Below are positions 1 to 10,166 of a DNA stretch of 11,602 nucleotides, one piece after another. Position 1 is the stretch's first letter. Every line of letters starts with the position of its first letter. This stretch comes from Promethearchaeati archaeon (GTDB lineage: Archaea; Asgardarchaeota; Heimdallarchaeia; JABLTI01), in assembly GCA_013166835.1 (NCBI GenBank), contig JABLTI010000087.1:1-11602 (forward strand), in the 5' to 3' direction. Position numbers and translations under genes: made by a program. Below the pieces are notes generated by a model. That model did not search any database and was not told the DNA's origin. It was given only the letters and a program-made list of their open reading frames with translations.

Positions 1-416
1 ATTCCAAAGAGAAGCGAAATAGCAAATATCATTACTGATGAACTAATAGCATATTCAAACCATCGGAAATAATTGATTCCTTGATCTAGTTTTCTATTGT
101 AAAAATCATTAATTCCTGGTATTACTGTTAAGAAGTGTGCAATTGCTGATATGAATAGAAATGCTGCTGCTAAAATTGCTAATGGTATAATATTATCAAT
201 AATAGTAAAATCCGGAACCAAATCAGGTGGTGGCCCTGGATCGAAAAATCTGAAATCAGTTGATATATCTAATTTGAAATCTTTGACACCTGGAATAACG
301 AAGCTTGCAATTAACATAAATGTAGCTTGAACTAAATGAAGTGCACCCATTATTCCATTGAAACGTCTTAATTTAGGATAAGTAATTTTTGATTCTGTTT
401 CACGAATTCCTTCCAT
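1..416 (-). CDS. heR: Heliorhodopsin (HeR), 5' part; gene runs off the left edge
   Basis: Not in the ORF track. Manual translation from ATG 416 gives 138 aa with no stop: MEGIRETESKITYPKLRRFNGIMGALHLVQATFMLIASF...FLFISAIAHFLTV...GINYFRWFEYAISSSVMIFAISLLFG. It has the HeR hallmarks: TM1 'N..MG.LHLVQ' (His27), a long TM1-TM2 loop, TM2 'SA.AH' (His94) and TM3 'N.FRWFEY..SSS.M' (counterion Glu121). RBS-like GGAGAGG lies about 8 nt upstream. The retinal-binding Lys in TM7 is outside the window. Confidence 0.93.
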   Translation of the reverse strand, partial: MEGIRETESKITYPKLRRFNGIMGALHLVQATFMLIASFVIPGVKDFKLDISTDFRFFDPGPPPDLVPDFTIIDNIIPLAILAAAFLFISAIAHFLTVIPGINDFYNRKLDQGINYFRWFEYAISSSVMIFAISLLFG

Positions 417-607
417 TCATCAATCCTCTCCATTTTAGAAGTTTTTAATAAAATGTAATTATTAAAGAACAATAATCTTTTCTGAATATAATAATTATAG
501 TTAATTTTCTGAATTTTACACTGGTAAAAAGTTAATTATCTATAATTTTTAGTTTATATTGATTAAAAAATTGATAAACTATATAACATCAAGTTTAGTT
601 GATTTGC
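417..607. promoter_or_regulatory. Divergent promoter region shared by heliorhodopsin and photolyase
   Basis: Very AT-rich intergenic DNA between head-to-head genes. TATATAA at 580-586 lies about 25 nt before the photolyase ATG (608), fitting a leaderless archaeal transcript. TATA-like candidates on the minus strand are near 445-452 and 486-491. Exact boxes are uncertain. Confidence 0.5.
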
Positions 608-1978
608 ATGATTCACTCAGAAAGAATCCAGAAATTAAATAATCTACCTGTAAATAATACAAGTAATTTTATTGTATATTGGATGCAATCATCAAGCAGA
701 ACTGAATTTAATCATGCCTTGGAATATGCTATTGAGAAATCAAATGAAATCCAAAAACCATTAATTGTTTTTTATGGTTTAACAGATTCTTTTCCAGAAG
801 CAACTGAAAGACACTATTATTTTCTACTAGAAGGACTGCAAGAAGTGGAATCGAATCTAATAAAAAGAGGGATTAAATTCGTAGTGCAGAAAATCTCACC
901 AGAAATAGGAGCTTTTGAAATTGCTAAAGACGCAGCTCTAGTTGTTGTTGATAGAGGATATTTAAACATTGAACGGAAATGGCGACAATTTTTATCTGGA
1001 AAATTAGATTGTTCTCTTATTCAAGTTGAAAGCAATGTTGTTGTTCCTGTTGAAGATGCATCTGATAAAGAAGAATTTGCAGCTTACACTATTAGACCAA
1101 AAATTAATAAAAAATTGAATAAATATCTTGTTCCTCTTAATAAAAGAAAAGTCAATTTTAGCTCTAATGATTATGATTTCACAACTTTAAACCTTCTAGA
1201 TCTAAATAATATTCTCAATGAATTTAATATAGATAAAACTGTGAAAAAAGTTTCTGGATTCACTGGGGGTTACTCAAAAGCAAAGCTCAATTTACAAGAG
1301 TTTATTTCTGGGAAATTGGAAAAATATGAAACTATGAGAAATAATCCAGTATATGATTATCAATCAAATCTAAGTCCTTTCCTACATTTTGGGCAAATCT
1401 CTCCATTAGAAATCGCTTTAGAAATTTCGAAAACAGAAGGTCAAGCTAAAAAGAATTATCTAGAACAATTAATAATTAGGAGAGAACTAAGTATAAACTT
1501 CATTACTTATAATCTAGGATATGATAATTACAATACGTTGAATAATCCAAGATGGGCAGAACAAACACTTGAAGATCATATCAAAGATAAAAGAGAATAC
1601 GTATATTCCTTAGAAGAATTTGAGCAAGCAAAAACCCATGATTCTTACTGGAATGCTGCACAAAATGAGATGGTAATTACAGGAAAAATGCATAATTATA
1701 TGCGAATGTATTGGGGAAAGAAAATACTGGAATGGACGGAAACACCTGAACTAGCCTATAAAATAGCAATTAATCTGAACAATAAATATGAATTGGATGG
1801 TCGAGATCCTAATGGCTATACAGGAGTTGCTTGGTGTTTTGGAAAACATGATCGCCCTTGGAAAGAAAGACCAATTTTTGGAAAAGTAAGATATATGAAT
1901 GCAAATGGTTTGAGAAGGAAATTTGATGTTGAAAAATATGTTATGAAAATAAAGAATCTTGATATATATAACAACTAA
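608..1978 (+). CDS. phrB: Class II CPD photolyase (deoxyribodipyrimidine photo-lyase)
   Basis: N-terminal VYWMQ...R..FNHAL and SNLSPFLHFGQIS. The class II C-terminus is intact: THDSYWNAAQ.EM..TGKMHNYMRMYWGKKILEW, LNNKYELDGRDPNGY.GVAWC.G.HDRPW.ERPIFGKVRYM. The class II Trp cascade and the flavin-proximal Asn appear present. ATG 608 preferred over TTG 599 from the track. Confidence 0.96.
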   Translation: MIHSERIQKLNNLPVNNTSNFIVYWMQSSSRTEFNHALEYAIEKSNEIQKPLIVFYGLTDSFPEATERHYYFLLEGLQEVESNLIKRGIKFVVQKISPEIGAFEIAKDAALVVVDRGYLNIERKWRQFLSGKLDCSLIQVESNVVVPVEDASDKEEFAAYTIRPKINKKLNKYLVPLNKRKVNFSSNDYDFTTLNLLDLNNILNEFNIDKTVKKVSGFTGGYSKAKLNLQEFISGKLEKYETMRNNPVYDYQSNLSPFLHFGQISPLEIALEISKTEGQAKKNYLEQLIIRRELSINFITYNLGYDNYNTLNNPRWAEQTLEDHIKDKREYVYSLEEFEQAKTHDSYWNAAQNEMVITGKMHNYMRMYWGKKILEWTETPELAYKIAINLNNKYELDGRDPNGYTGVAWCFGKHDRPWKERPIFGKVRYMNANGLRRKFDVEKYVMKIKNLDIYNN

Positions 1979-2004
1979 AAAATGTCCTGCAACTAATTGA
2001 AACT

Positions 2005-2020
2005 GAAGAGAATTTATAAA
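2005..2020 (+). promoter_or_regulatory. Archaeal BRE + TATA box for the E2-like gene
   Basis: Purine-rich GAAGAGAA (2005-2012) followed directly by TTTATAAA (2013-2020), then AGGAG (2051-2055) and ATG 2064. Confidence 0.6.
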
Positions 2021-2063
2021 GCAAATTGCAATGAATTATTGTAATTTAACAGGAGATTACATT

Positions 2064-3005
2064 ATGCCAAGAAGGCCAGATGCAGAATTAGTAAAAACAT
2101 CAAAATTTCGTGAATTAGAATTTTATATTATGCAAAAGAGACATGAAAGTGTCATTTATGCTGATATACTAATTGATCTAACAAATACTTACAAGTTTCT
2201 AGAAAAGTACAATAAAGATAAGAAGGATAACGAGAAATTAACTCTCTTTCAAATATTTTTGACTGCTGTTGTAAGAACAATCACTCTTCGACCTAAAGTC
2301 AATCGTTTTGTTGCAGGTCGTCGATTATGGCAACGAAACCGAATAATTTTGTCTTTTGTAGTTAATAAAGAAAAGACTGAAGAAAGTGAAGAAATAAATG
2401 CTATGATAGAATTTGATCCTTATGACACCTTGGAAACAGTTCAAAGTATCGTAAATAAGCAGATTTATGAAGCTCGACATTTGGAAAATCCAAATCAAAA
2501 AGATGTCGATTTTTGGGGAGGAATGCCTCGTTGGATCATTAGGTTCATGTTTTGGTTCATGCGTTGGACAGATGAACACAATATACCAATTAATTCCCTC
2601 ATAGACGATATGCCATTATGGTGTTCGTGTTTTATAGCACATTTAGGTTCACTCAATGTAGATGCGGTCTTTCATCACCCCTTTGAGTTAGGAACTGCAA
2701 GTATCGTAATGATTATTGGAAAAATCCACAAAGCAGCAATAGTTAATCAAGAAACAGATGAAATTAAAATTAAAAAAGTCATGAAACTTAAAGCGAGTAT
2801 AGATGATCGTATCGCAAGTGGGATATATACAGGACCTACTTTCGATTTATTTAAGAGTCTTATTGAAAATCCAGAGCCTCTGTTGAAACCACCAGAATTG
2901 ACAGATGAACAATTAGATGCTCTAAAATTAAAGAAATACAAGAAAGAACGAATTGCTCGAGAGAAACAAAGAAAGAAAGATAAGAAAAAAAGAAAGAAAA
3001 AGTAA
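2064..3005 (+). CDS. Stand-alone 2-oxoacid dehydrogenase acyltransferase (E2) catalytic-domain-like protein, no lipoyl domain
   Basis: Pattern 'IDLT...F...', 'RPKVNRFVAGRRLWQRN.I.LSFVV', 'FIAHLGSL', 'HHPFELGT' and C-terminal 'IDDRIASG' at the DHRxxDG position. Start set at ATG 2064 (AGGAG RBS, downstream of the TATA box) rather than 2031. Confidence 0.75.
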   Translation: MPRRPDAELVKTSKFRELEFYIMQKRHESVIYADILIDLTNTYKFLEKYNKDKKDNEKLTLFQIFLTAVVRTITLRPKVNRFVAGRRLWQRNRIILSFVVNKEKTEESEEINAMIEFDPYDTLETVQSIVNKQIYEARHLENPNQKDVDFWGGMPRWIIRFMFWFMRWTDEHNIPINSLIDDMPLWCSCFIAHLGSLNVDAVFHHPFELGTASIVMIIGKIHKAAIVNQETDEIKIKKVMKLKASIDDRIASGIYTGPTFDLFKSLIENPEPLLKPPELTDEQLDALKLKKYKKERIAREKQRKKDKKKRKKK

Positions 3006-3009
3006 AAGA
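2963..3009 (-). terminator. Possible oligo(U) terminator for the DUF362 gene, overlapping the Lys-rich tail codons of the convergent gene
   Basis: On the minus strand, a long T-rich tract (including T7 and T5 runs) begins about 10-20 nt after the stop at 3019. Oligo-U tracts are the usual archaeal termination signal. Confidence 0.4.
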
Positions 3010-3018
3010 ACAGAGCGA

Positions 3019-4206
3019 CTAAAAGAATGTTGGCTCTGATTCATACCTTTCTTTAGGTGGTTCCATCTTTGCAGTTTCCTCTGGTGAAAGAATTTCAATA
3101 AGTTCGTATTTTGAGGTACCCATACCTAGTTTTTCTGCGTATTCTACAGTCTTATATGGATCTTTAAAGTGTCCAAAGAGCTGTTGGAAAGGATGTAATT
3201 CTGGTTTTAATTGGACATTATTTAGAAACGGTGGTATACTTGATTCAAGAAGACCTTCCTTTTTAATTAAGTCTAGAGTAGCTTGTTCAATAGCAACAGT
3301 ATCTTTGCTGGCAAGAATACCTATTTCATTTACTACAATTGGCTGTGGCATCCCCATACAATCACAAAATGCTGTTATTTGAAGAGCGACATTGAAATTG
3401 AAGATTTTATTCTTATCAAAAGTGTCTAGAACTAATTTTGCAGCGATAGCTTGGAACTCTTGGAAAGCATTATAATTTTCTTGCTTTATTTCTAAAGAAC
3501 CAACATCTTCATCAGCTTTAATACATTTCATACACTGATTGCAATTATAAAAACCAACTTTTAGTTCATGTTTATCTTCTTTATAGTCAATGCATTTTTC
3601 TGGACAGGATTCCACTAGTTTCTTCGCATGTTCTGGAGTACATTTATCTGCGTCCCAATATTTATCGTAATGTACTACTGCATGAATTTTGTTCCATCTT
3701 GTTTTTGCGGCAAAACCACCGAGAGCGATATTTTTTATCACTCCACCAAAACCGGGTAATCCATGTCCTTTTGCATGGGCGAAGTTAATTAGCACGTCAG
3801 CATCATGTAAAACTCCTGCTAGATCAACTGAGTCGATACCTTTGAAATCAACTTTTTTAGTATAGACGTAACCATCTTTGATTCCTGCTACAGGGATTAT
3901 TGGACAACCACAGGTTTCTTCAGTATACCCTCTGTTTACTGCATTGTAAACAGCTGTTGGATTGTCAGTCACAAAAGGAACACCACCTGTTTTTTTTATT
4001 GCTTTAACTAGTCTTCTTACAAAAAAGACTGGAACAGTTTGGTATCCATCATTAAAACCGAGATGCATTTTGATAGCGACTTTATCCTTCTTTTCAATGG
4101 AAGAAAAATCAAGGGACTCAAGGATTTTCTCATATTTCGCACCAAGAGATGCAAATCGATTTGCTTTACCATGTTGTAAAGAACCGAAATAAACTTTCGA
4201 GGTCAT
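3019..4206 (-). CDS. DUF362 domain iron-sulfur protein with an internal ferredoxin-like segment
   Basis: SKVYF start, 'VAIKMHLG', 'HAKGHGLPGFGGVIKNIALG', 'CNQCMKC', 'IT.FCDC....PIV.EIGILASKD.VAIEQATLDL', 'YAEKLGMGT.KYELI'. ATG 4206 preferred because the track's GTG 4215 sits inside the RBS-like GTGTGA. Confidence 0.85.
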   Translation of the reverse strand: MTSKVYFGSLQHGKANRFASLGAKYEKILESLDFSSIEKKDKVAIKMHLGFNDGYQTVPVFFVRRLVKAIKKTGGVPFVTDNPTAVYNAVNRGYTEETCGCPIIPVAGIKDGYVYTKKVDFKGIDSVDLAGVLHDADVLINFAHAKGHGLPGFGGVIKNIALGGFAAKTRWNKIHAVVHYDKYWDADKCTPEHAKKLVESCPEKCIDYKEDKHELKVGFYNCNQCMKCIKADEDVGSLEIKQENYNAFQEFQAIAAKLVLDTFDKNKIFNFNVALQITAFCDCMGMPQPIVVNEIGILASKDTVAIEQATLDLIKKEGLLESSIPPFLNNVQLKPELHPFQQLFGHFKDPYKTVEYAEKLGMGTSKYELIEILSPEETAKMEPPKERYESEPTFF

Positions 4207-4297
4207 TTTTTTCACACTTAGAATTAAGTCAATGTTTTCTATCTTTAATATGAATGTAGTATTTTAATTCTTTGTAAAATTAAATGAAAAAGTCGAA

Positions 4298-5119
4298 TTA
4301 TAGTATTGATAATAGCTTATGAGCTTGAAGAGAAATACCATACAACTCAGTGGGTAAAATTTCTGCTAAAATTTCTGTTATTTTGAATAATTTTCGATGA
4401 GATATTGGTTCGACTTTTCCTATGGGAGTGACAGGTTGTATAACAACAGGTACCTCTATTTCTCGGATTTTATCTGCATACATTCGAATATCATCAAGAG
4501 AAGTTTGTTCTGTTACTACTATTTTGGCAAAAACTTGTACTGAATGATTGTTCAGAATCGCTAAGGATTCCATTTCTTTTTCAATAAGTTTATCCCATTC
4601 ACTCTTTTTCACGCTATTAGCAGATCGATCCTTTATATCAACACAAGCATAAGTAATGCTAGGAGCAACTTTTGCAATACGTTTTGGAAAATAACCATTT
4701 GTTTCAAGAAAAACAGGTTTTTTAAAATCATACAATTGATTAACTATTTGATAAAAGAATTCTTCTTGAAAAGCAGGTTCTCCACCAGTTAAAGATACAG
4801 AATGAATGTCTTTTGTTGATAAATTTAATACTTGTTCTACTACAAATTCAGGACTTACAGGATTTTTATATGTTGTAAACTCCCATGTTCCAGGTTTCTT
4901 TTCAACTTTACATTCTGGATATTCGGCGTCCCGAGAGTGTGCGGTATCACACCAATCACACTTCAGATCACAACCGGCTAATCGAATGAAAATTTGCCTT
5001 CTGCCAAAACAAGACCCTTTAACTGATCCTCCTTCTCCCTGATAAGAACTGAAGATTTCTACAATACTACCATTAATGGAATTCTTCTTAACACTTTCTT
5101 TTTTATCTTTGGCACTCAA
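4298..5119 (-). CDS. queE: 7-carboxy-7-deazaguanine synthase QueE (radical SAM)
   Basis: EIFSSYQGEG...G.RQIFIRLAGCDLKCDWCDT (CxxxCxxC), SLTGGEP, LETNG, VIQPV and C-terminal LQAHKLL. Adjacent to queC. TTG start with GGAGA RBS 7 nt upstream. Confidence 0.92.
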   Translation of the reverse strand: MSAKDKKESVKKNSINGSIVEIFSSYQGEGGSVKGSCFGRRQIFIRLAGCDLKCDWCDTAHSRDAEYPECKVEKKPGTWEFTTYKNPVSPEFVVEQVLNLSTKDIHSVSLTGGEPAFQEEFFYQIVNQLYDFKKPVFLETNGYFPKRIAKVAPSITYACVDIKDRSANSVKKSEWDKLIEKEMESLAILNNHSVQVFAKIVVTEQTSLDDIRMYADKIREIEVPVVIQPVTPIGKVEPISHRKLFKITEILAEILPTELYGISLQAHKLLSIL

Positions 5120-5168
5120 GGTAAATTCTCCATTCTGTAATATCTTTTCTTTATTCTAATACCTATTA

Positions 5169-5903
5169 TTATTTATCATAAATCGTTGGGTCCTTAATTG
5201 AACTTTCACTGAATCCTCGTTTTCTACGCAAGCAACTCTCACAAATACCACAATGGATAGGCCTGCTTTTTTGATCAACCCCTTTAGGATTGTAACAGGA
5301 ACTGCTGAATTCAAAAGGAACATTGAGTTTGACCCCTAATTCCACAATCTCTTTTTTTCTCATTCCAGCTACAGGACTAATAACACTTACTTTTGCATTT
5401 AGTATGCCTCTAGATGCAGTTCGAATAAAATCATCAATGAATTCTTGAGTGTTGTCTGGAAAACTTGTTCCTTCTTCTAGATTGAAACCTGTTATAATGT
5501 CAACATCATTTCCAATAACTTCTGAATACGAGGAAGCAATGGATAGGAATAACAAGTTTCTCCCTGGAATCCAAACAGATCGAGCACTTTCTAAACTTGA
5601 GGGTAGATCATCTAATTCATCCTTAGATAATTTTGGAAGTTCTTTTTTACTTCCTTGTGCTAATGCGCTATCAATTCTTCTTGAGAAATCAGCTAAAAAC
5701 TCAAGACGAATAAACTCGTGATTGTTTGTTTTCACTAAACTCCCTAGTTTCTTAGTGGTTTGTACTAGAACAGTTTCCTCTTTAGAACCATATTCAAAAG
5801 TGATGCAGTCTACTCGTTTGTATTGTTGCTTTTTTGCCCACCAAAGACAAACCGTTGAATCTAATCCACCACTTAGCAGTATAATTGCTGATTTTTGTGA
5901 CAT
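5169..5903 (-). CDS. queC: 7-cyano-7-deazaguanine (preQ0) synthase QueC
   Basis: PP-loop LLSGGLDS, TFEYG, VWIPGRNL.FLSIA, EEG.SFPDN (archaeal-type) and Zn site SCY...HCGICESC..RKRGF. No GAT domain is fused. Confidence 0.96.
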   Translation of the reverse strand: MSQKSAIILLSGGLDSTVCLWWAKKQQYKRVDCITFEYGSKEETVLVQTTKKLGSLVKTNNHEFIRLEFLADFSRRIDSALAQGSKKELPKLSKDELDDLPSSLESARSVWIPGRNLLFLSIASSYSEVIGNDVDIITGFNLEEGTSFPDNTQEFIDDFIRTASRGILNAKVSVISPVAGMRKKEIVELGVKLNVPFEFSSSCYNPKGVDQKSRPIHCGICESCLRRKRGFSESSIKDPTIYDK

Positions 5904-5916
5904 TTTTTTTCACACA

Positions 5917-6477
5917 TTATTCCTTAACTTTATCTAGGATATCTTTTGCATTGATTAAGTAATGAACTTTGATTGAGTGCTCTTTCTCAAAATCTGCTAA
6001 GCCTTCAGATCTATCAATGAAGACGAAGAGATCCTCCACTGTTGCTCCTTCCTCTCGCAAAGCAGTAATTGCAAAAGCTTTACTAAAACCACTCGAAACT
6101 AAATCATCAACAAGAAGTATTTTTTGTCCTTTTGTGATTTCACCTTCAATCATTTTTTTAAGGCCGTGCTTCTTCGGTTCCTTCCTCAAAATATAATATG
6201 GTTTATTGAGTTTATGAGCAATTAAAGTTCCAAAAGGTATAGCGGCCATAGGAATTGCTACAATCCCCTCTATATCTGGAAAATGCTTGGCAATATAACT
6301 CACTGCCTCATCAATCAAAGAGTTAAATTCTTCCGGAAAATTAGGGATTATTCGTAAATCAATATAATACTTTGATTTTGCACCAGAAGCAAGTGTAAAA
6401 TCACCAAATTTTAGCGCACCTGTTTTTTCAAGCGTTTTCAAAATATTATCCTTTGTGTTTGCTTGTTCTTCAGCCAT
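5917..6477 (-). CDS. pyrE: Alternative model: stand-alone PyrE (186 aa) from internal ATG 6477
   Basis: In-frame Met235 (MAEEQANTK) is preceded by AAGGTGTGAG, an RBS-like element matching those before queC and the DUF362 gene. The length is typical of archaeal PyrE. Confidence 0.65.
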   Translation of the reverse strand: MAEEQANTKDNILKTLEKTGALKFGDFTLASGAKSKYYIDLRIIPNFPEEFNSLIDEAVSYIAKHFPDIEGIVAIPMAAIPFGTLIAHKLNKPYYILRKEPKKHGLKKMIEGEITKGQKILLVDDLVSSGFSKAFAITALREEGATVEDLFVFIDRSEGLADFEKEHSIKVHYLINAKDILDKVKE

Positions 6478-7179
6478 TAACTCACACCTTTGAAATACTG
6501 TAGACCTCTTTCTTTTATCTTTTGTGCTCCCTAAAATTGGAATTATTGCTCGATTAAGAATATCGGGTACAAAAATGAAGAGAATAATATTCGTAGCAGT
6601 TCTCGAAATGGTAACAACTATTCCCGCTAATAGTGCTACAGCATAAGCTGCAAAAGAGAAACTTACTTCATCCCCAGCTTGAACTGAGAGAAGAACCCAG
6701 CCAAAATTCACTATCAAATCATAACTAATAGTTAGTAATCCCCCAACAACGCCCATGAAGAATCGCCAGAAGTATGTGGGCTTTTTGTATAGTATTCTAC
6801 CAAGTAAAGCTCCTGTTAAAGCAATTAGTATGTAAGCAATAATTTTAAACGGAAAAATAATTGGTCCTACACCAAGCAATGTTGTAGAGATTATTTCATA
6901 AAGTGATGAAGATAAAATCGCTAAAATTACACTATAAAGCGGTCCTAGAATTGCACCTCCAATAAATAATGTCAAAGACATCAATTCAAAGAAGGGTAAA
7001 TACGCGAACAATGTTGCTAAGGCTACACCTAATGCAGTAAAAATAGCAAGGATAGTAATCTTAACAGTTGGTCTTACTTGTGAGAACTCATCTAGAACTT
7101 GAACTTCTGTATTTTCTTCTTTTTGAAGATCATTGATAACAGAAATATCATTCTTAGTTTCAGATGAATTTTTTGGCAT
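5917..7179 (-). CDS. pyrE: ECF transporter S-component-like membrane protein in frame with orotate phosphoribosyltransferase (apparent fusion, 420 aa)
   Basis: aa ~40-215 hold about 6 hydrophobic helices with an S-component-like start (LAIFTALGVALA; LPFFELMSLTLFIGGAILGP). aa 235-420 are a complete PyrE: FGDFTLASG.KSKYYID, RKEPKKHG, PRPP motif LLVDDLVSSG.S, FIDR. No stop codon lies between the halves. Confidence 0.8.
   Translation of the reverse strand: MPKNSSETKNDISVINDLQKEENTEVQVLDEFSQVRPTVKITILAIFTALGVALATLFAYLPFFELMSLTLFIGGAILGPLYSVILAILSSSLYEIISTTLLGVGPIIFPFKIIAYILIALTGALLGRILYKKPTYFWRFFMGVVGGLLTISYDLIVNFGWVLLSVQAGDEVSFSFAAYAVALLAGIVVTISRTATNIILFIFVPDILNRAIIPILGSTKDKRKRSTVFQRCELMAEEQANTKDNILKTLEKTGALKFGDFTLASGAKSKYYIDLRIIPNFPEEFNSLIDEAVSYIAKHFPDIEGIVAIPMAAIPFGTLIAHKLNKPYYILRKEPKKHGLKKMIEGEITKGQKILLVDDLVSSGFSKAFAITALREEGATVEDLFVFIDRSEGLADFEKEHSIKVHYLINAKDILDKVKE
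6481..6490 (-). promoter_or_regulatory. Internal ribosome-binding site for pyrE
   Basis: Minus strand reads AAGGTGTGAG-TTA-ATG. Compare GTGTGA(A)nATG before queC (5915-5910) and the DUF362 gene (4217-4212), and GGTGA before 8418. Confidence 0.6.
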
Positions 7180-7190
7180 AGTCTCTTCCT

Positions 7191-7928
7191 TCAGTTTTTC
7201 AAACTAGTTTTTTTCTTACATCGCCAAACTATTGAAAAGGCAACTATTACTAAGAATCCACTCACAATTGTTATTGCCGGAAAATTACTAGTTACAGGGG
7301 GCAAAGGTATTGAGGAATATGTTAGGTGCATGCTTAATGAGAAAGATCCTGAAGTAGTATTTGCTGAAATTAAAACCCCAGTTTGTGGTTCATATTCCAA
7401 TTCTGTTGTTTGAAAACCATCATCATAACTTATTCTATATGTGTCTACTACTGTATCAATAACCCTGCCTGTATCATTGTAAACAATGGATGCATTTTCT
7501 CCAATAAAAGGAGTTACATCTGTAAGCACACCCCAATCTGGTTCTAAGGAAACCAAACCTCCATACCAAGGTAAAGCTGATAAACCAAGGTTAAAACCAA
7601 TATCTTGATCATGAGTTGTGACTGATAAATTTCCTATATCTAAATTCCCAGTTAAATATTCCTTATTTTCTATTTCAACCGAACTAAGTGCAGTAAAACC
7701 AATTACATTGCTTTGGTTTGCATGCCAATTAGCATAGAAACCCCAAGTTGAAACATTGTACCATTCAATATTTCCTGCTGAAACATTGTCTATAATCCAT
7801 GTAAAATTTTCTCCATAATAGAGTTCTGTGGGTACTTTTGCTGAAACATTTTGAACTATAACACATGAAATTAGTATTGTTATTATAATAAGCAAATAGC
7901 CACTTCTTCCATTTTTCTTTAAGTGCAT
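7191..7928 (-). CDS. Secreted, C-terminally membrane-anchored glycoprotein of unknown function
   Basis: Signal peptide (KKNGR, hydrophobic stretch, VSA cleavage-like site), beta-rich body with 9 N-X-S/T sequons, 'YEPQTGVLI' motif, then a Pro-rich linker, TM helix and RCKKK tail (CTERM-like layout). RBS GGAAGGA upstream. Confidence 0.8.
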   Translation of the reverse strand: MHLKKNGRSGYLLIIITILISCVIVQNVSAKVPTELYYGENFTWIIDNVSAGNIEWYNVSTWGFYANWHANQSNVIGFTALSSVEIENKEYLTGNLDIGNLSVTTHDQDIGFNLGLSALPWYGGLVSLEPDWGVLTDVTPFIGENASIVYNDTGRVIDTVVDTYRISYDDGFQTTELEYEPQTGVLISANTTSGSFSLSMHLTYSSIPLPPVTSNFPAITIVSGFLVIVAFSIVWRCKKKTSLKN

Positions 7929-7944
7929 AATTTATCCTTCCATT

Positions 7945-8418
7945 TTATGAATAACTCTTGTAAATCCAACTTATTTCCTTGGCATTGTTTTCGCGGATAT
8001 TGAATTTATCAGATGCAATACTTCCAGCTCCACCGTCAACATAATATTTCCAGTAGTTGTCAACACTCTGTTCAATACCAGCTATTGCTTCAACAAATAT
8101 CCCACTCGGAAAAGTCCTTACTTCAACAGTTATGTTTGCTAGAAGCAATATGGTGTAAGCACTGGTTGTTTGATTCGCTTCGAGAAGTATTGTTAGATTA
8201 ATATTTTCTCGAAATCCGTTGAAATCAACAATCAATCTTACTTGCATTTCTTCATCTAAGTCTGTTGAGGTTGTTGAATACCCAAGTTTTTCTCTTAGAG
8301 AATCAGGCAATATTCCATTGAATGGGCCAAAAATTAAACCACCAGTTATTACGAAAACTATCAAAATAAATCCGATTATTGAAAGCAATCGATAATTTTT
8401 CTCAAAGAAATTTGCCAT
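7945..8418 (-). CDS. DUF4430 (transcobalamin C-terminal-like) membrane-anchored protein
   Basis: N-terminal TM helix, then 'V.LIVDFNG...T.AY..L...G.FVEAI.G......YWKYYVDG......SD.......I.W.Y', the DUF4430 pattern. GGTGA RBS upstream. Confidence 0.8.
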   Translation of the reverse strand: MANFFEKNYRLLSIIGFILIVFVITGGLIFGPFNGILPDSLREKLGYSTTSTDLDEEMQVRLIVDFNGFRENINLTILLEANQTTSAYTILLLANITVEVRTFPSGIFVEAIAGIEQSVDNYWKYYVDGGAGSIASDKFNIRENNAKEISWIYKSYS

Positions 8419-8442
8419 AGATTCACCTGAAATTAGATTCTA

Positions 8443-8463
8443 AATAGGTTAATATAACCTATT
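8443..8463. promoter_or_regulatory. Perfect inverted repeat AATAGGTTA-ata-TAACCTATT; candidate operator
   Basis: 9-bp arms (8443-8451 and 8455-8463) with a 3-bp spacer, 25-45 nt upstream of the DUF4430 start and within the promoter zone. Minus-strand TATA candidates are at 8450-8457 and 8471-8478. Confidence 0.55.
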
Positions 8464-8505
8464 ATTTTCCTTTTAAAATTCTTTCTTTCCCTCGGGATTG
8501 TATTT

Positions 8506-8521
8506 CGAAAGGTTTTATAAA
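8506..8521 (+). promoter_or_regulatory. Archaeal BRE + TATA box for the MuiA-family gene
   Basis: CGAAAGG followed by TTTTATAAA, then GAGGA (8552-8556) and ATG 8565. Confidence 0.65.
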
Positions 8522-8564
8522 AAGAAAGTCTTAGCTGAAACATCAAACATTGAGGATTATTCTA

Positions 8565-10166
8565 ATGTCAGACAAAAATTTTACTACTCTTAAATCCACA
8601 ATAGATAGAGTTGTTGTATATTTAGATGGTGCGAGAATTTATCGCTCCGGTAAAGCTGAACTCAAAAAGGGGTTCCAGCAAGTGTGTATTCAAGGTTTAA
8701 CAAAGAATCTGCACAAAGATAGCGTTAGGGTTTCGGGTAAAGGTAAGGGATCCTTGGGTGCAATTGATGTGGAAACCGTTTATCAAGAAGAGGTTTCACA
8801 TGAAGCTTTGAATGCTTTAATACTAGAAGAAGATAAATTACAAAAGGAATTACTAGTTTTAACTCAAAAATTAGAATTCGCTAGCTTACAGAATGCTCGA
8901 TTAAAAGCTTTAAGTGATAAATTCTCACTTGAATTTCCACAATGGTTAGCATCTGGCGAATCACAGTTAACAACATTAAATGAGTTCATTGATTTTGAAA
9001 CAAAAAGAAATACTGATTTCTTAAAGCAAAAGCAAAAACTGGAAGAAGATATAGAGAATCTCCAGAAAAAACTGAACACATTGCAAGCAAAAATCAATGA
9101 ATATCGAAATCAATCTCGAGTAGAACAGACTTATACCATAACAATTGGAGTAGACGTAAATACTGCAGGTCCATTTGTTTTTGATATGTCTTATCAAACC
9201 AGAGGCGTCACTTGGAATGCTAATTATGATGTCGATTTGCAACCTACTAAAGCAATTCTCAAAGGAATAGCACAAGTTGTCAATCGAACATTAGAGGATT
9301 GGAAGAATGTTGAATTAGAAATATCAACTGCTGTTTTCAAACCAATCAGGGTTATAGATCCAAATCCATTCTACATTGATATCTATGATCCATATGCCAG
9401 ACCAGCACCAGCACCAAAAGCTAGTCGCTCCATGAAGAAAATGAAAGCAGGTGCAGCAGCATTCGCCAGTGTAGCTGAAGAAGCAAGAATGGATGATTAT
9501 GAGAAAGAAGAAGATTTGTTTGAACCAGTAGCAGAAATGAAAGAAAGCGCTGCCGGAGTACAAAGCTATGTAATTCCTGGTAAATGGACAATCCCATCTG
9601 ATGGAAACACTCATCCAGTGACTTTAACTATTACTGAATTGAAAACTGAAAAAGAATTCTATTGGGCAGCCACTGACGCTCTTGGAGTTATCGCTCAAGA
9701 TAAGCTTACTAATGATGACGAAGTAATTCTTGGTGGAAACGCTAAGGTTTATTCTGAAGGTGAATTCATAGGTGAAACACATATCACTAGGGTTCCCCCA
9801 AGAGACGAATTCAAATTAGGTGCACGAGAAGAACTCAAATTAGCTGCTAAAAAGAAACTACTCAAGCGAGTCAGAGAAAAAGCAGGTTTAGTCAAAGGTA
9901 AACGTGCTATTTCTTATGAATACGAACTAGAGATTAAGAACTTCCGAAAAGAAGCTTCACAAATAACGCTAAAAGATGCAATTCCTTATTCCCGATCTGA
10001 ACGTATCAAAATCAAGGGTTTTGAAGCCAGTGTTGTACCAGTAAAAGATAATCTTGGTATTTACACCTGGGAGTTAAAACTCAAACCAGATGGTGTAACC
10101 AAAATAACCTACAAATTCGAGGTCGAATGGGAAAAGGATTATGAAATCACTCCAACTTTGCCGTGA
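8565..10166 (+). CDS. Mucoidy inhibitor MuiA-family protein (DUF4140 + coiled coil + DUF4139)
   Basis: N-terminal 'IDRVVVYLDGA.IYR...L.KG.Q.V.I.GL...L.KDSVRV.G.G', long coiled coil, 'SYQ..GVTW.A.YD', 'AQVVNRT.EDW.NV.L.ISTA.', Ala/Met-rich linker, 'TIPSDG', 'G.A.VY.EGEFIG', 'G...WELKL.P......Y.FEVE'. No signal peptide. ATG 8565 preferred over TTG 8550. Confidence 0.9.
   Translation: MSDKNFTTLKSTIDRVVVYLDGARIYRSGKAELKKGFQQVCIQGLTKNLHKDSVRVSGKGKGSLGAIDVETVYQEEVSHEALNALILEEDKLQKELLVLTQKLEFASLQNARLKALSDKFSLEFPQWLASGESQLTTLNEFIDFETKRNTDFLKQKQKLEEDIENLQKKLNTLQAKINEYRNQSRVEQTYTITIGVDVNTAGPFVFDMSYQTRGVTWNANYDVDLQPTKAILKGIAQVVNRTLEDWKNVELEISTAVFKPIRVIDPNPFYIDIYDPYARPAPAPKASRSMKKMKAGAAAFASVAEEARMDDYEKEEDLFEPVAEMKESAAGVQSYVIPGKWTIPSDGNTHPVTLTITELKTEKEFYWAATDALGVIAQDKLTNDDEVILGGNAKVYSEGEFIGETHITRVPPRDEFKLGAREELKLAAKKKLLKRVREKAGLVKGKRAISYEYELEIKNFRKEASQITLKDAIPYSRSERIKIKGFEASVVPVKDNLGIYTWELKLKPDGVTKITYKFEVEWEKDYEITPTLP

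Follow-up and report, generated by a model that had tools for sequence, protein, structure and literature searches.

A divergent heliorhodopsin–photolyase gene pair as a probable light module of a Heimdall-type Asgard archaeon

We analysed a window of 11602 bases (the whole stretch of DNA under study, which forms the first part of contig C229 in the 260-contig assembly G000) and found a heliorhodopsin (HeR) gene and a gene for a class II cyclobutane pyrimidine dimer (CPD) photolyase (PHR) placed head-to-head at its left end (Table 1). A first-pass annotation of the window had described an intact class II CPD photolyase in divergent orientation about 190 bp from the rhodopsin, and this was borne out, the spacer measuring 191 bp. 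The archaeal host that it had assumed was also supported, as the nearest named relatives of the neighbouring QueC protein belong to Candidatus Heimdallarchaeota (93% and 73% identity), whose phylum is shared with Promethearchaeota.

Table 1. Features of the heliorhodopsin–photolyase locus. Positions refer to the window unless a contig is named.
Feature	Position	Strand	Remarks
Heliorhodopsin (HeR) gene, codons 1-138	1..416	-	start ATG 414-416; remainder past contig start
Divergent AT-rich spacer between HeR and PHR starts, 191 bp	417..607		presumably contains both promoters
Candidate HeR transcript 5' end	431..438	-	RNA-library contig ends, 15-22 nt upstream of HeR ATG; weak hint
Candidate TATA-box-like TTTAATAA	459..466	-	25-31 nt upstream of RNA contig ends; region very AT-rich
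Class II CPD photolyase (PHR), 456 aa	608..1978	+	from ATG 608; reading frame opens also at TTG 599
Full-length HeR allele, 270 aa	G000:C53:888-1700	+	retinal lysine K254 in SLVSKS

The HeR reading frame on the minus strand (3-416, 138 aa) contains no stop and runs off the left end of the window; it surfaces only when open-ended open reading frames (ORFs) are listed. The fragment is the N-terminal half of the protein and matched Pfam PF18761 Heliorhodopsin (E 7.9e-29, 101.1 bits against a cut-off of 26.7, profile positions 1-114 of 242). In agreement with the first-pass description of a HeR with both histidines and an RWFEY motif, H27 in transmembrane helix (TM) 1, H94 in TM2 and the counterion E121 in TM3 (FRWFEY) are all present and are invariant in 81 HeRs. 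Since the window is the start of C229, HeR is cut by the contig end and not by a mutation. A second contig of the same assembly, C53 (9856 nt), overlaps window positions 1-695 at 92% identity and carries the complete gene, with the first 235 codons of the photolyase adjoining it in the same head-to-head layout. This allele scored 294 bits on the NCBIfam HeR model NF038020 (cut-off 100). Its retinal lysine K254 (SLVSKS) was also found in two related genomes, G009 and G011, aligns with the lysines of the heliorhodopsins TaHeR and TfHeR and is invariant in the 81 HeRs. The earlier worry over a truncated HeR was thereby dispelled, the TM7 lysine being in place in the C53 allele, and a public DNA contig identical to window positions 1-1027 extends 5234 bases beyond the left end; the run that yielded it may be the source sample.

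Searches of the PDB with full-length HeR returned 9vfc (E 1.7e-56), TaHeR 6is6 (2.7e-56) and 48C12 6su3 (5.2e-48), and this whole-length homology to solved HeRs suggests a protein of inverted membrane topology, with a cytoplasmic N-terminus, that binds retinal. With regard to retinal supply, profiles for phytoene synthase (PF00494) and the RPE65-type oxygenase (PF03055) had no match in G000 with positive controls, although at about 85% genome completeness absence is not established. Searches with profiles for Blh (PF15461) and type-1 rhodopsin (PF01036) were matchless with their controls silent too and are uninformative. According to passages of Chazan et al. (bioRxiv 10.1101/2021.02.16.431466), HeR hosts usually rely on outside retinal.

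The photolyase ORF spans positions 599-1978 of the plus strand (459 aa), with a likely start at ATG 608, which is conserved in G009 and G011. The protein matched Pfam PF00875 DNA_photolyase and is the sole PF00875 locus in the G000 genome. On the NCBIfam model TIGR00591 phr2 it scored 549.8 bits, 0.25 short of the cut-off of 550.05, with E 6.8e-165 over profile positions 3-453 of 453, and the remaining photolyase and cryptochrome models gave less than 40 bits. Its top six PDB sequences were all class II enzymes from M. mazei and rice at E <=3e-82 (8oet 4.7e-103 and 2xry 1.2e-101 from M. mazei, 3umv 3.3e-82 from rice), with DASH and plant cryptochromes next at E >=3e-4. W369, W376 and N391 are invariant and W348 is nearly invariant in 80 relatives, and all four align with identical M. 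mazei residues. Following the M. mazei literature, we take W348/W369/W376 to be the class II electron-transfer tryptophan chain and N391 the asparagine at FAD-N5, their counterparts presumably being W360/W381/W388/N403.

Contigs C229 and C53 represent two haplotypes, which differ at 108 positions in about 1300 bases. The differences are concentrated at window positions 300-1000 (per 100 bases, 11-18 at 400-1000, 7 at 300-400 and 0-3 at 1-300 and 1000-1200), and in the spacer 157 of the 191 positions are identical. This stretch, which takes in the spacer and the 5' portions of HeR and PHR, resembles a recombination tract and is the probable cause of the assembly break. Between the haplotypes HeR shows 9 nucleotide changes and 1 amino-acid change (dN/dS 0.08, dS 0.08) and PHR 59 nucleotide and 18 amino-acid changes (dN/dS 0.13, dS 0.32); purifying selection acts on both. 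The gene order of two related genomes shows C229 and C53 to be the two sides of one locus, which reads QueC-QueE-...-PHR<->HeR-...-SCP2-FAD oxidoreductase-Rieske-DUF1295. The source assembly is 84.75% complete with 6.79% contamination, and this figure, together with the two haplotypes of the locus, could point to a mis-binned or chimeric contig, or else to unrelated genes adjacent by chance. We regard such an origin as very improbable, given that the arrangement recurs, with its flanking synteny, in both haplotypes and in two further species, and that public contigs from other samples bridge HeR, spacer and PHR. Another sample yielded a 9007-base contig with C53-type differences that extends 8565 bases past the left end of the window.

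We then compared the locus across the family of the host (f1, 12 genomes, G000-G011), its taxonomic class (41 genomes) and a phylum survey (400 genomes). Within the family, HeR is confined to three genomes (G000, G009 and G011), and so are class II PHR and PF00875 photolyases of any kind; the other nine have none of them, and no genome carries one gene of the pair alone. These three are also the only genomes of the class with a class II PHR (3/41), in all of which it lies head-to-head with HeR, and HeR itself is found in 15 of the 41. The adjacency is not unique to one genome, as the first-pass annotation had thought possible, but is kept in every family genome that has either gene (3/3). All three pairs occupy one locus, between QueE and an SCP2 gene, with shuffled OADH-like (2-oxoacid dehydrogenase acyltransferase-like) and DUF362 neighbours. 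In G000 the OADH-like gene flanks PHR and in G009 it flanks HeR, the pair being unbroken in both. In the close relative G007 the site is empty: its flanks are 80-97% identical to those of G000, and the OADH-like gene meets SCP2 with a 100-bp gap. The contiguous locus without the pair was found in six genomes (G007, G003, G010, G001, G008 and G006), and in G002, G004 and G005 it was unreadable, the contig ending within the OADH-like gene.

A proxy tree of QueE and QueC was used to place these gains or losses. The carriers are scattered on it, G000 nesting with three non-carriers with starred support and G009 and G011 lying elsewhere, so that the pattern requires three changes, at least two of which are forced by starred branches. 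By itself this tree cannot separate gain from loss. The divergence of the pair matches that of its flanks, both for G009 (PHR 70%, HeR 64%, QueE 71% and QueC 75% identity) and for G011 (PHR 62%, HeR 62%, QueE 62-65% and QueC 64%), and fits vertical descent with repeated joint loss. These comparisons show that within the family HeR and PHR are inherited together, kept side by side and jointly lost, and that they lie in a larger, variable island with Staygreen, a Rieske oxygenase and DUF1295.

The OADH-like gene of the window (2031-3005, plus strand) starts 53 bp downstream of PHR and encodes a 324-aa protein that has a Lys-rich tail and, of the acyltransferase catalytic domain, just the C-terminal part. 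As it is also present in HeR-less relatives and switches side in G009, it is not part of the HeR-PHR pair. Across loci L115-L123 the QueE-SCP2 interval holds varying inserts, namely DUF362 plus the OADH-like gene, PHR plus HeR, or unrelated genes of 216, 596 and 915 aa (G010, G008), and appears to be a hot spot of gene turnover. Further along the window (5917-7179, minus strand), a 420-aa protein combines a membrane domain like that of the S component of energy-coupling factor (ECF) transporters, a weak match at E 6.6e-4, with a phosphoribosyltransferase domain. Its gene adjoins QueC and the QueE-like radical SAM gene, and distant relatives have only the phosphoribosyltransferase part of 180-200 aa. 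This fusion may be specific to the closest relatives and tied to 7-deazaguanine metabolism.

Gene trees indicated that the pairing is not confined to one origin. In a HeR tree of 88 rows, from which duplicate loci and ORFs shorter than 200 aa were left out, the three family HeRs form one clade (SH-aLRT 84) on long branches, apart from the main Promethearchaeota clade, and PHR-adjacent HeRs occur in at least four places. The end branches of the family HeRs (L002, L022 and L026) measure 0.39-0.79 against a median of 0.078, and these HeRs therefore evolve faster than others. Both PHR trees were quick trees that carried compositional warnings. The first (52 rows) placed all 13 HeR-adjacent PHRs in one region and joined the family PHRs with those of Actinomycetota and of locus L071 (SH-aLRT 99), as would be expected of a cassette spreading as a unit. 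This grouping dissolved when 18 hand-picked HeR-less Asgard PHRs were added (53 rows); spread as a unit was rejected, and the first result was treated as a sampling or long-branch artefact. In the 53-row tree the family PHRs have further Asgard PHRs as neighbours, those of Actinomycetota and L071 join other Asgard sequences in a distinct deep clade (100*), and the HeR-adjacency label needs seven changes, at least four of them forced. The scatter of adjacency on both gene trees indicates that the pairing was assembled repeatedly from different PHR and HeR lineages, and on the strength of these trees it appears to have arisen independently several times, in Asgard archaea, Actinomycetota and Bacillota/Mycoplasmatota.

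Taken together, these results favour the reading that a Heimdall-type Asgard archaeon here carries a genuine light module of two genes, an intact HeR and the only photolyase of the genome, set in a variable light-defence island; we give this a probability of roughly 60%. The pair is probably one light-response unit inside the larger island, and a functional link between the two genes under light selection seems somewhat better supported than its opposite. In such a module the two genes would be divergently transcribed from the 191-bp spacer, and HeR, loaded with externally acquired retinal, would act as a visible-light sensor. It would most likely help the photolyase as TfHeR from Trichococcus flocculiformis helps its partner TfPHR, that is by binding, with about 3-fold faster repair that is extended to green light. 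The island as a whole (HeR, PHR, Staygreen, Rieske oxygenase and DUF1295) would equip a light-exposed species against photodamage.

Several sets of observations, reaching from genome sampling to single residues of the binding interface, weigh against this reading. The family genomes are metagenome-assembled and 64-92% complete, and related genomes are not independent of one another. The other 12 HeRs of the class belong to a different deep HeR clade, are 39-47% identical and have no PHR within 1.5 kb. Among the 80 HeR loci most like that of G000, many of whose flanks are cut by contig ends so that counts are lower bounds, a class II-like PHR lies within <=6 kb of HeR in eight: five full head-to-head pairs (L022 and L026 from family genomes, two from Actinomycetota and one from Acholeplasmataceae), the co-directional L071, L060 with a PHR 5 kb away at 32% identity, and L037 with a short remnant. 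A PHR lies near HeR in 9 of 78 Bacillota-type HeR loci, six of them co-directional (Trichococcus/Carnobacteriaceae) and three head-to-head with spacers of about 190 bp (Peloplasma, Erysipelothrix and Acholeplasmataceae); in head-to-head pairs of other lineages the spacers measure about 160-200 bp. Starting from the photolyase, HeR was found within 4 kb in one of the 80 most similar class II PHR loci (mostly diderm bacteria, 50-58% identity), and this one is a family genome. Class II PHR is present in 68 of the 400 phylum genomes, 49 of which were examined for HeR; Asgard PHR loci outside the family have HeR at +-1.5 kb in 0/27 and at +-3 kb in 2/19, one divergent at 1.3 kb and one co-directional.

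The remnant at L037 (869-1027, minus strand), an Actinomycetota locus, consists of 52 C-terminal residues of a class II PHR next to an intact HeR whose two closest relatives have the full head-to-head pair. A HeR can therefore outlive its photolyase.

The spacer and the RNA libraries add to these reservations. Co-regulation from a shared promoter region had been suggested in the first-pass annotation and found no support: a conserved operator was sought in the 191-bp spacer and none was found, the alignment of four sequences (window, C53, G009 and G011) being only patchily conserved. Inverted repeats in the spacer differ genome by genome, and the 80% AT DNA gave no usable motif. Two RNA-library runs from two studies, X11 and X19, contain contigs on HeR. 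The X11 contig (899 nt) ends at position 431, 15 nt upstream of the ATG, and reaches 468 bases past the left end of the window; if collinear with C53, it would comprise the entire HeR gene and about 70 nt more. The X19 contig (312 nt) ends at 438, 22 nt upstream of the HeR ATG. Neither contig has loose ends, whereas DNA contigs continue there, and with the archaeal TATA-box position relative to the transcript start in mind, TTTAATAA might serve as a TATA-box-like element of HeR. PHR is covered by just one 265-base piece in X11, and the missing PHR cover in X19 is not evidence. Word depth in X11 is greater for the HeR contigs than for the PHR piece, a comparison of contig depths that cannot rank genes. 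More generally, RNA contigs cannot show co-expression or levels, and DNA carry-over in RNA libraries is possible.

A further reservation comes from the surroundings of the pair. Past HeR, C53 carries at 1837-9591 (locus L285) a 169-aa protein of unknown type, an alpha/beta hydrolase, a choice-of-anchor-S surface protein, Staygreen (PF12638, E 3e-40) and SCP2, followed by an FAD oxidoreductase, a zf_CopZ/BFD protein, a Rieske/VanA_C oxygenase and DUF1295. Staygreen, the hydrolase and the Rieske oxygenase presumably resemble the enzymes of plant chlorophyll breakdown. Staygreen and the Rieske/VanA_C oxygenase follow the same 3/12 pattern in the family as HeR and PHR, and the co-occurrence of the pair may therefore reflect a shared light niche and not a partnership. 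The runs in which the sequence occurs come from sediment metagenomes; a light-exposed niche of the host is plausible, and the pair seems to form the core of a light-defence island.

The identical phyletic pattern of four gene families is also what one would expect if HeR, PHR, Staygreen, the Rieske oxygenase and DUF1295 were separate light- or pigment-stress genes, co-selected and gained and lost together in light-exposed species and for that reason clustered in one variable island, with HeR neither touching nor regulating PHR. The different inserts of G008 and G010 in the QueE-SCP2 hot spot fit this explanation, as do the photolyase neighbours reported in passages of Chazan et al. (bioRxiv 10.1101/2021.02.16.431466) near DTE proton pumps too, which make the association not specific to HeR; the binding residue R162 of TfHeR is likewise not conserved. 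Among the island genes, on the other hand, only PHR directly adjoins HeR in all three carriers, Staygreen lying near HeR in G000 alone and on other contigs in G009 and G011. The head-to-head pair also stays intact where the OADH-like gene switches sides, several phyla put the same pairing together independently of one another, and there is an experimental precedent at 51-54% identity (PMC9769723). A niche island without partnership is in our view rather unlikely, though a serious contender.

We also considered that the true partner of HeR is another product of the island (DUF1295, Staygreen or the Rieske oxygenase, with a role in lipid or tetrapyrrole handling) and that the photolyase is merely a co-regulated neighbour. 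DUF1295 is a published HeR neighbour family (passages of bioRxiv 10.1101/2021.02.16.431466), and each of the three carriers has the Rieske oxygenase and a copy of DUF1295 at 2-8 kb from HeR. None of the three candidates immediately adjoins HeR in all three genomes, however, DUF1295 paralogues occur in 12/12 family genomes, and binding of any candidate to HeR is purely hypothetical. We consider this quite improbable and retain the two-gene light module as the preferred reading.

Comparison with characterized proteins supports the identity of both members of the module. The M. mazei photolyase (2xry, 8oet) aligns with PHR over residues 23-455 at about 45-50% identity, as judged by eye, and the tryptophan spacing of 21 and 7 residues, with the asparagine 15 further on, is identical. 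The solved HeRs TaHeR (Thermoplasmatales archaeon; 6is6/7clj/7u55), 9vfc and 48C12 (6su3) match over residues 9-269 with E from 1.7e-56 to 5e-48, and their SLVxK lysine, RWFEY glutamate and both histidines align with those of the G000 HeR.

With respect to published surveys, the association of HeR with photolyase is already in print, and so, since 2018, are HeRs of Heimdallarchaeia. In passages of their reports, both Cho et al. 2024 (PMC11109279), who define a 'photolyase group' of HeR operons, and Chazan et al. (bioRxiv 10.1101/2021.02.16.431466) list photolyase among frequent HeR neighbours, and both covered Archaea. Both surveys count same-operon neighbours, whereas the G000 pair is divergent. 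An Asgard or Heimdall pair is not named in the main-text passages of the two papers, whose member lists sit in supplements, and among the papers listed for heliorhodopsin, photolyase and Asgard archaea no title or abstract describes an Asgard HeR-photolyase pair. New here are the both-or-neither inheritance, the head-to-head arrangement at the same locus in 3/12 family genomes and the empty site in a close relative. Strict co-inheritance, the empty site and repeated independent origin provide comparative evidence beyond single-locus reports. The locus also marks a Heimdall genus whose species either possess a full light-damage kit or lack one altogether, which bears on the debated light exposure of Asgard habitats. 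Of the first-pass annotation, the observation and the archaeal pairing stood, and co-regulation and physical interaction remain conjectural. The known picture is unchanged, the association being published and binding unproven for this pair.

The closest functional comparison is the TfHeR-TfPHR pair of T. flocculiformis (Shim et al. 2022, PMC9769723), whose passages report a KD of 22 uM, an 8-nm blue shift and about 3-fold better repair by TfPHR in the presence of TfHeR; the R162Q and K227Q substitutions abolished binding. The first-pass annotation had stated correctly that a Trichococcus HeR binds and stimulates its neighbouring photolyase and that Asgard HeRs are known. The function of HeR is still debated and direct tests exist for few partners; the G000 locus offers an archaeal counterpart to the one bacterial pair tested. 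In Trichococcus, too, HeR lies beside a class II CPD photolyase, with 51% (HeR) and 54% (PHR) identity to the G000 pair, and the retinal lysine, counterion glutamate and both histidines are conserved. The Trichococcus host is a Bacillota bacterium, whereas G000 is an Asgard archaeon. In Trichococcus both genes point the same way, PHR being upstream at a distance of about 0.8-2.3 kb; the G000 genes are divergent across 191 bp and do not share an operon of the TfHeR-TfPHR type. TfPHR and the G000 PHR also fall on different branches of the PHR tree.

At the interface we used the T. flocculiformis locus L214, where a 263-aa ORF reproduces the published numbering of E97, R162 and K227. R162 of TfHeR corresponds to T169 in G000 (Ser in G009, Thr in G011), and among 14 other HeRs compared an arginine occurs at this position only in L089 and L097, both of Bacillota/Mycoplasmatota type. 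K227 corresponds to K232 in G000 and to Arg in G009, and is Lys in 14/14 of the other HeRs with or without an adjacent PHR; E97 is replaced by D104. With R162 replaced, K227 kept and E97 changed to Asp, the published interface is therefore only partly present, and if binding occurs its interface must differ in part from the Trichococcus one. A complex prediction from PHR (80-row alignment) and HeR (81-row alignment) gave ipSAE 0.00 in both runs, without controls, and counts neither way. By analogy with TfHeR, HeR may bind the photolyase directly, a possibility that we hold tentatively and at less than even odds. A more far-reaching version, which we think unlikely, would make HeR-PHR the fixed core of an island (Staygreen, Rieske, DUF1295) that is passed on or lost as a unit and sets the light-exposed species of a genus apart from its dark-dwelling ones, with HeR physically activating the sole photolyase through an independently evolved interface that lacks R162. 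If this were true, rhodopsin-assisted photorepair would have evolved convergently on several occasions, one of them in the archaeal lineage closest to eukaryotes.

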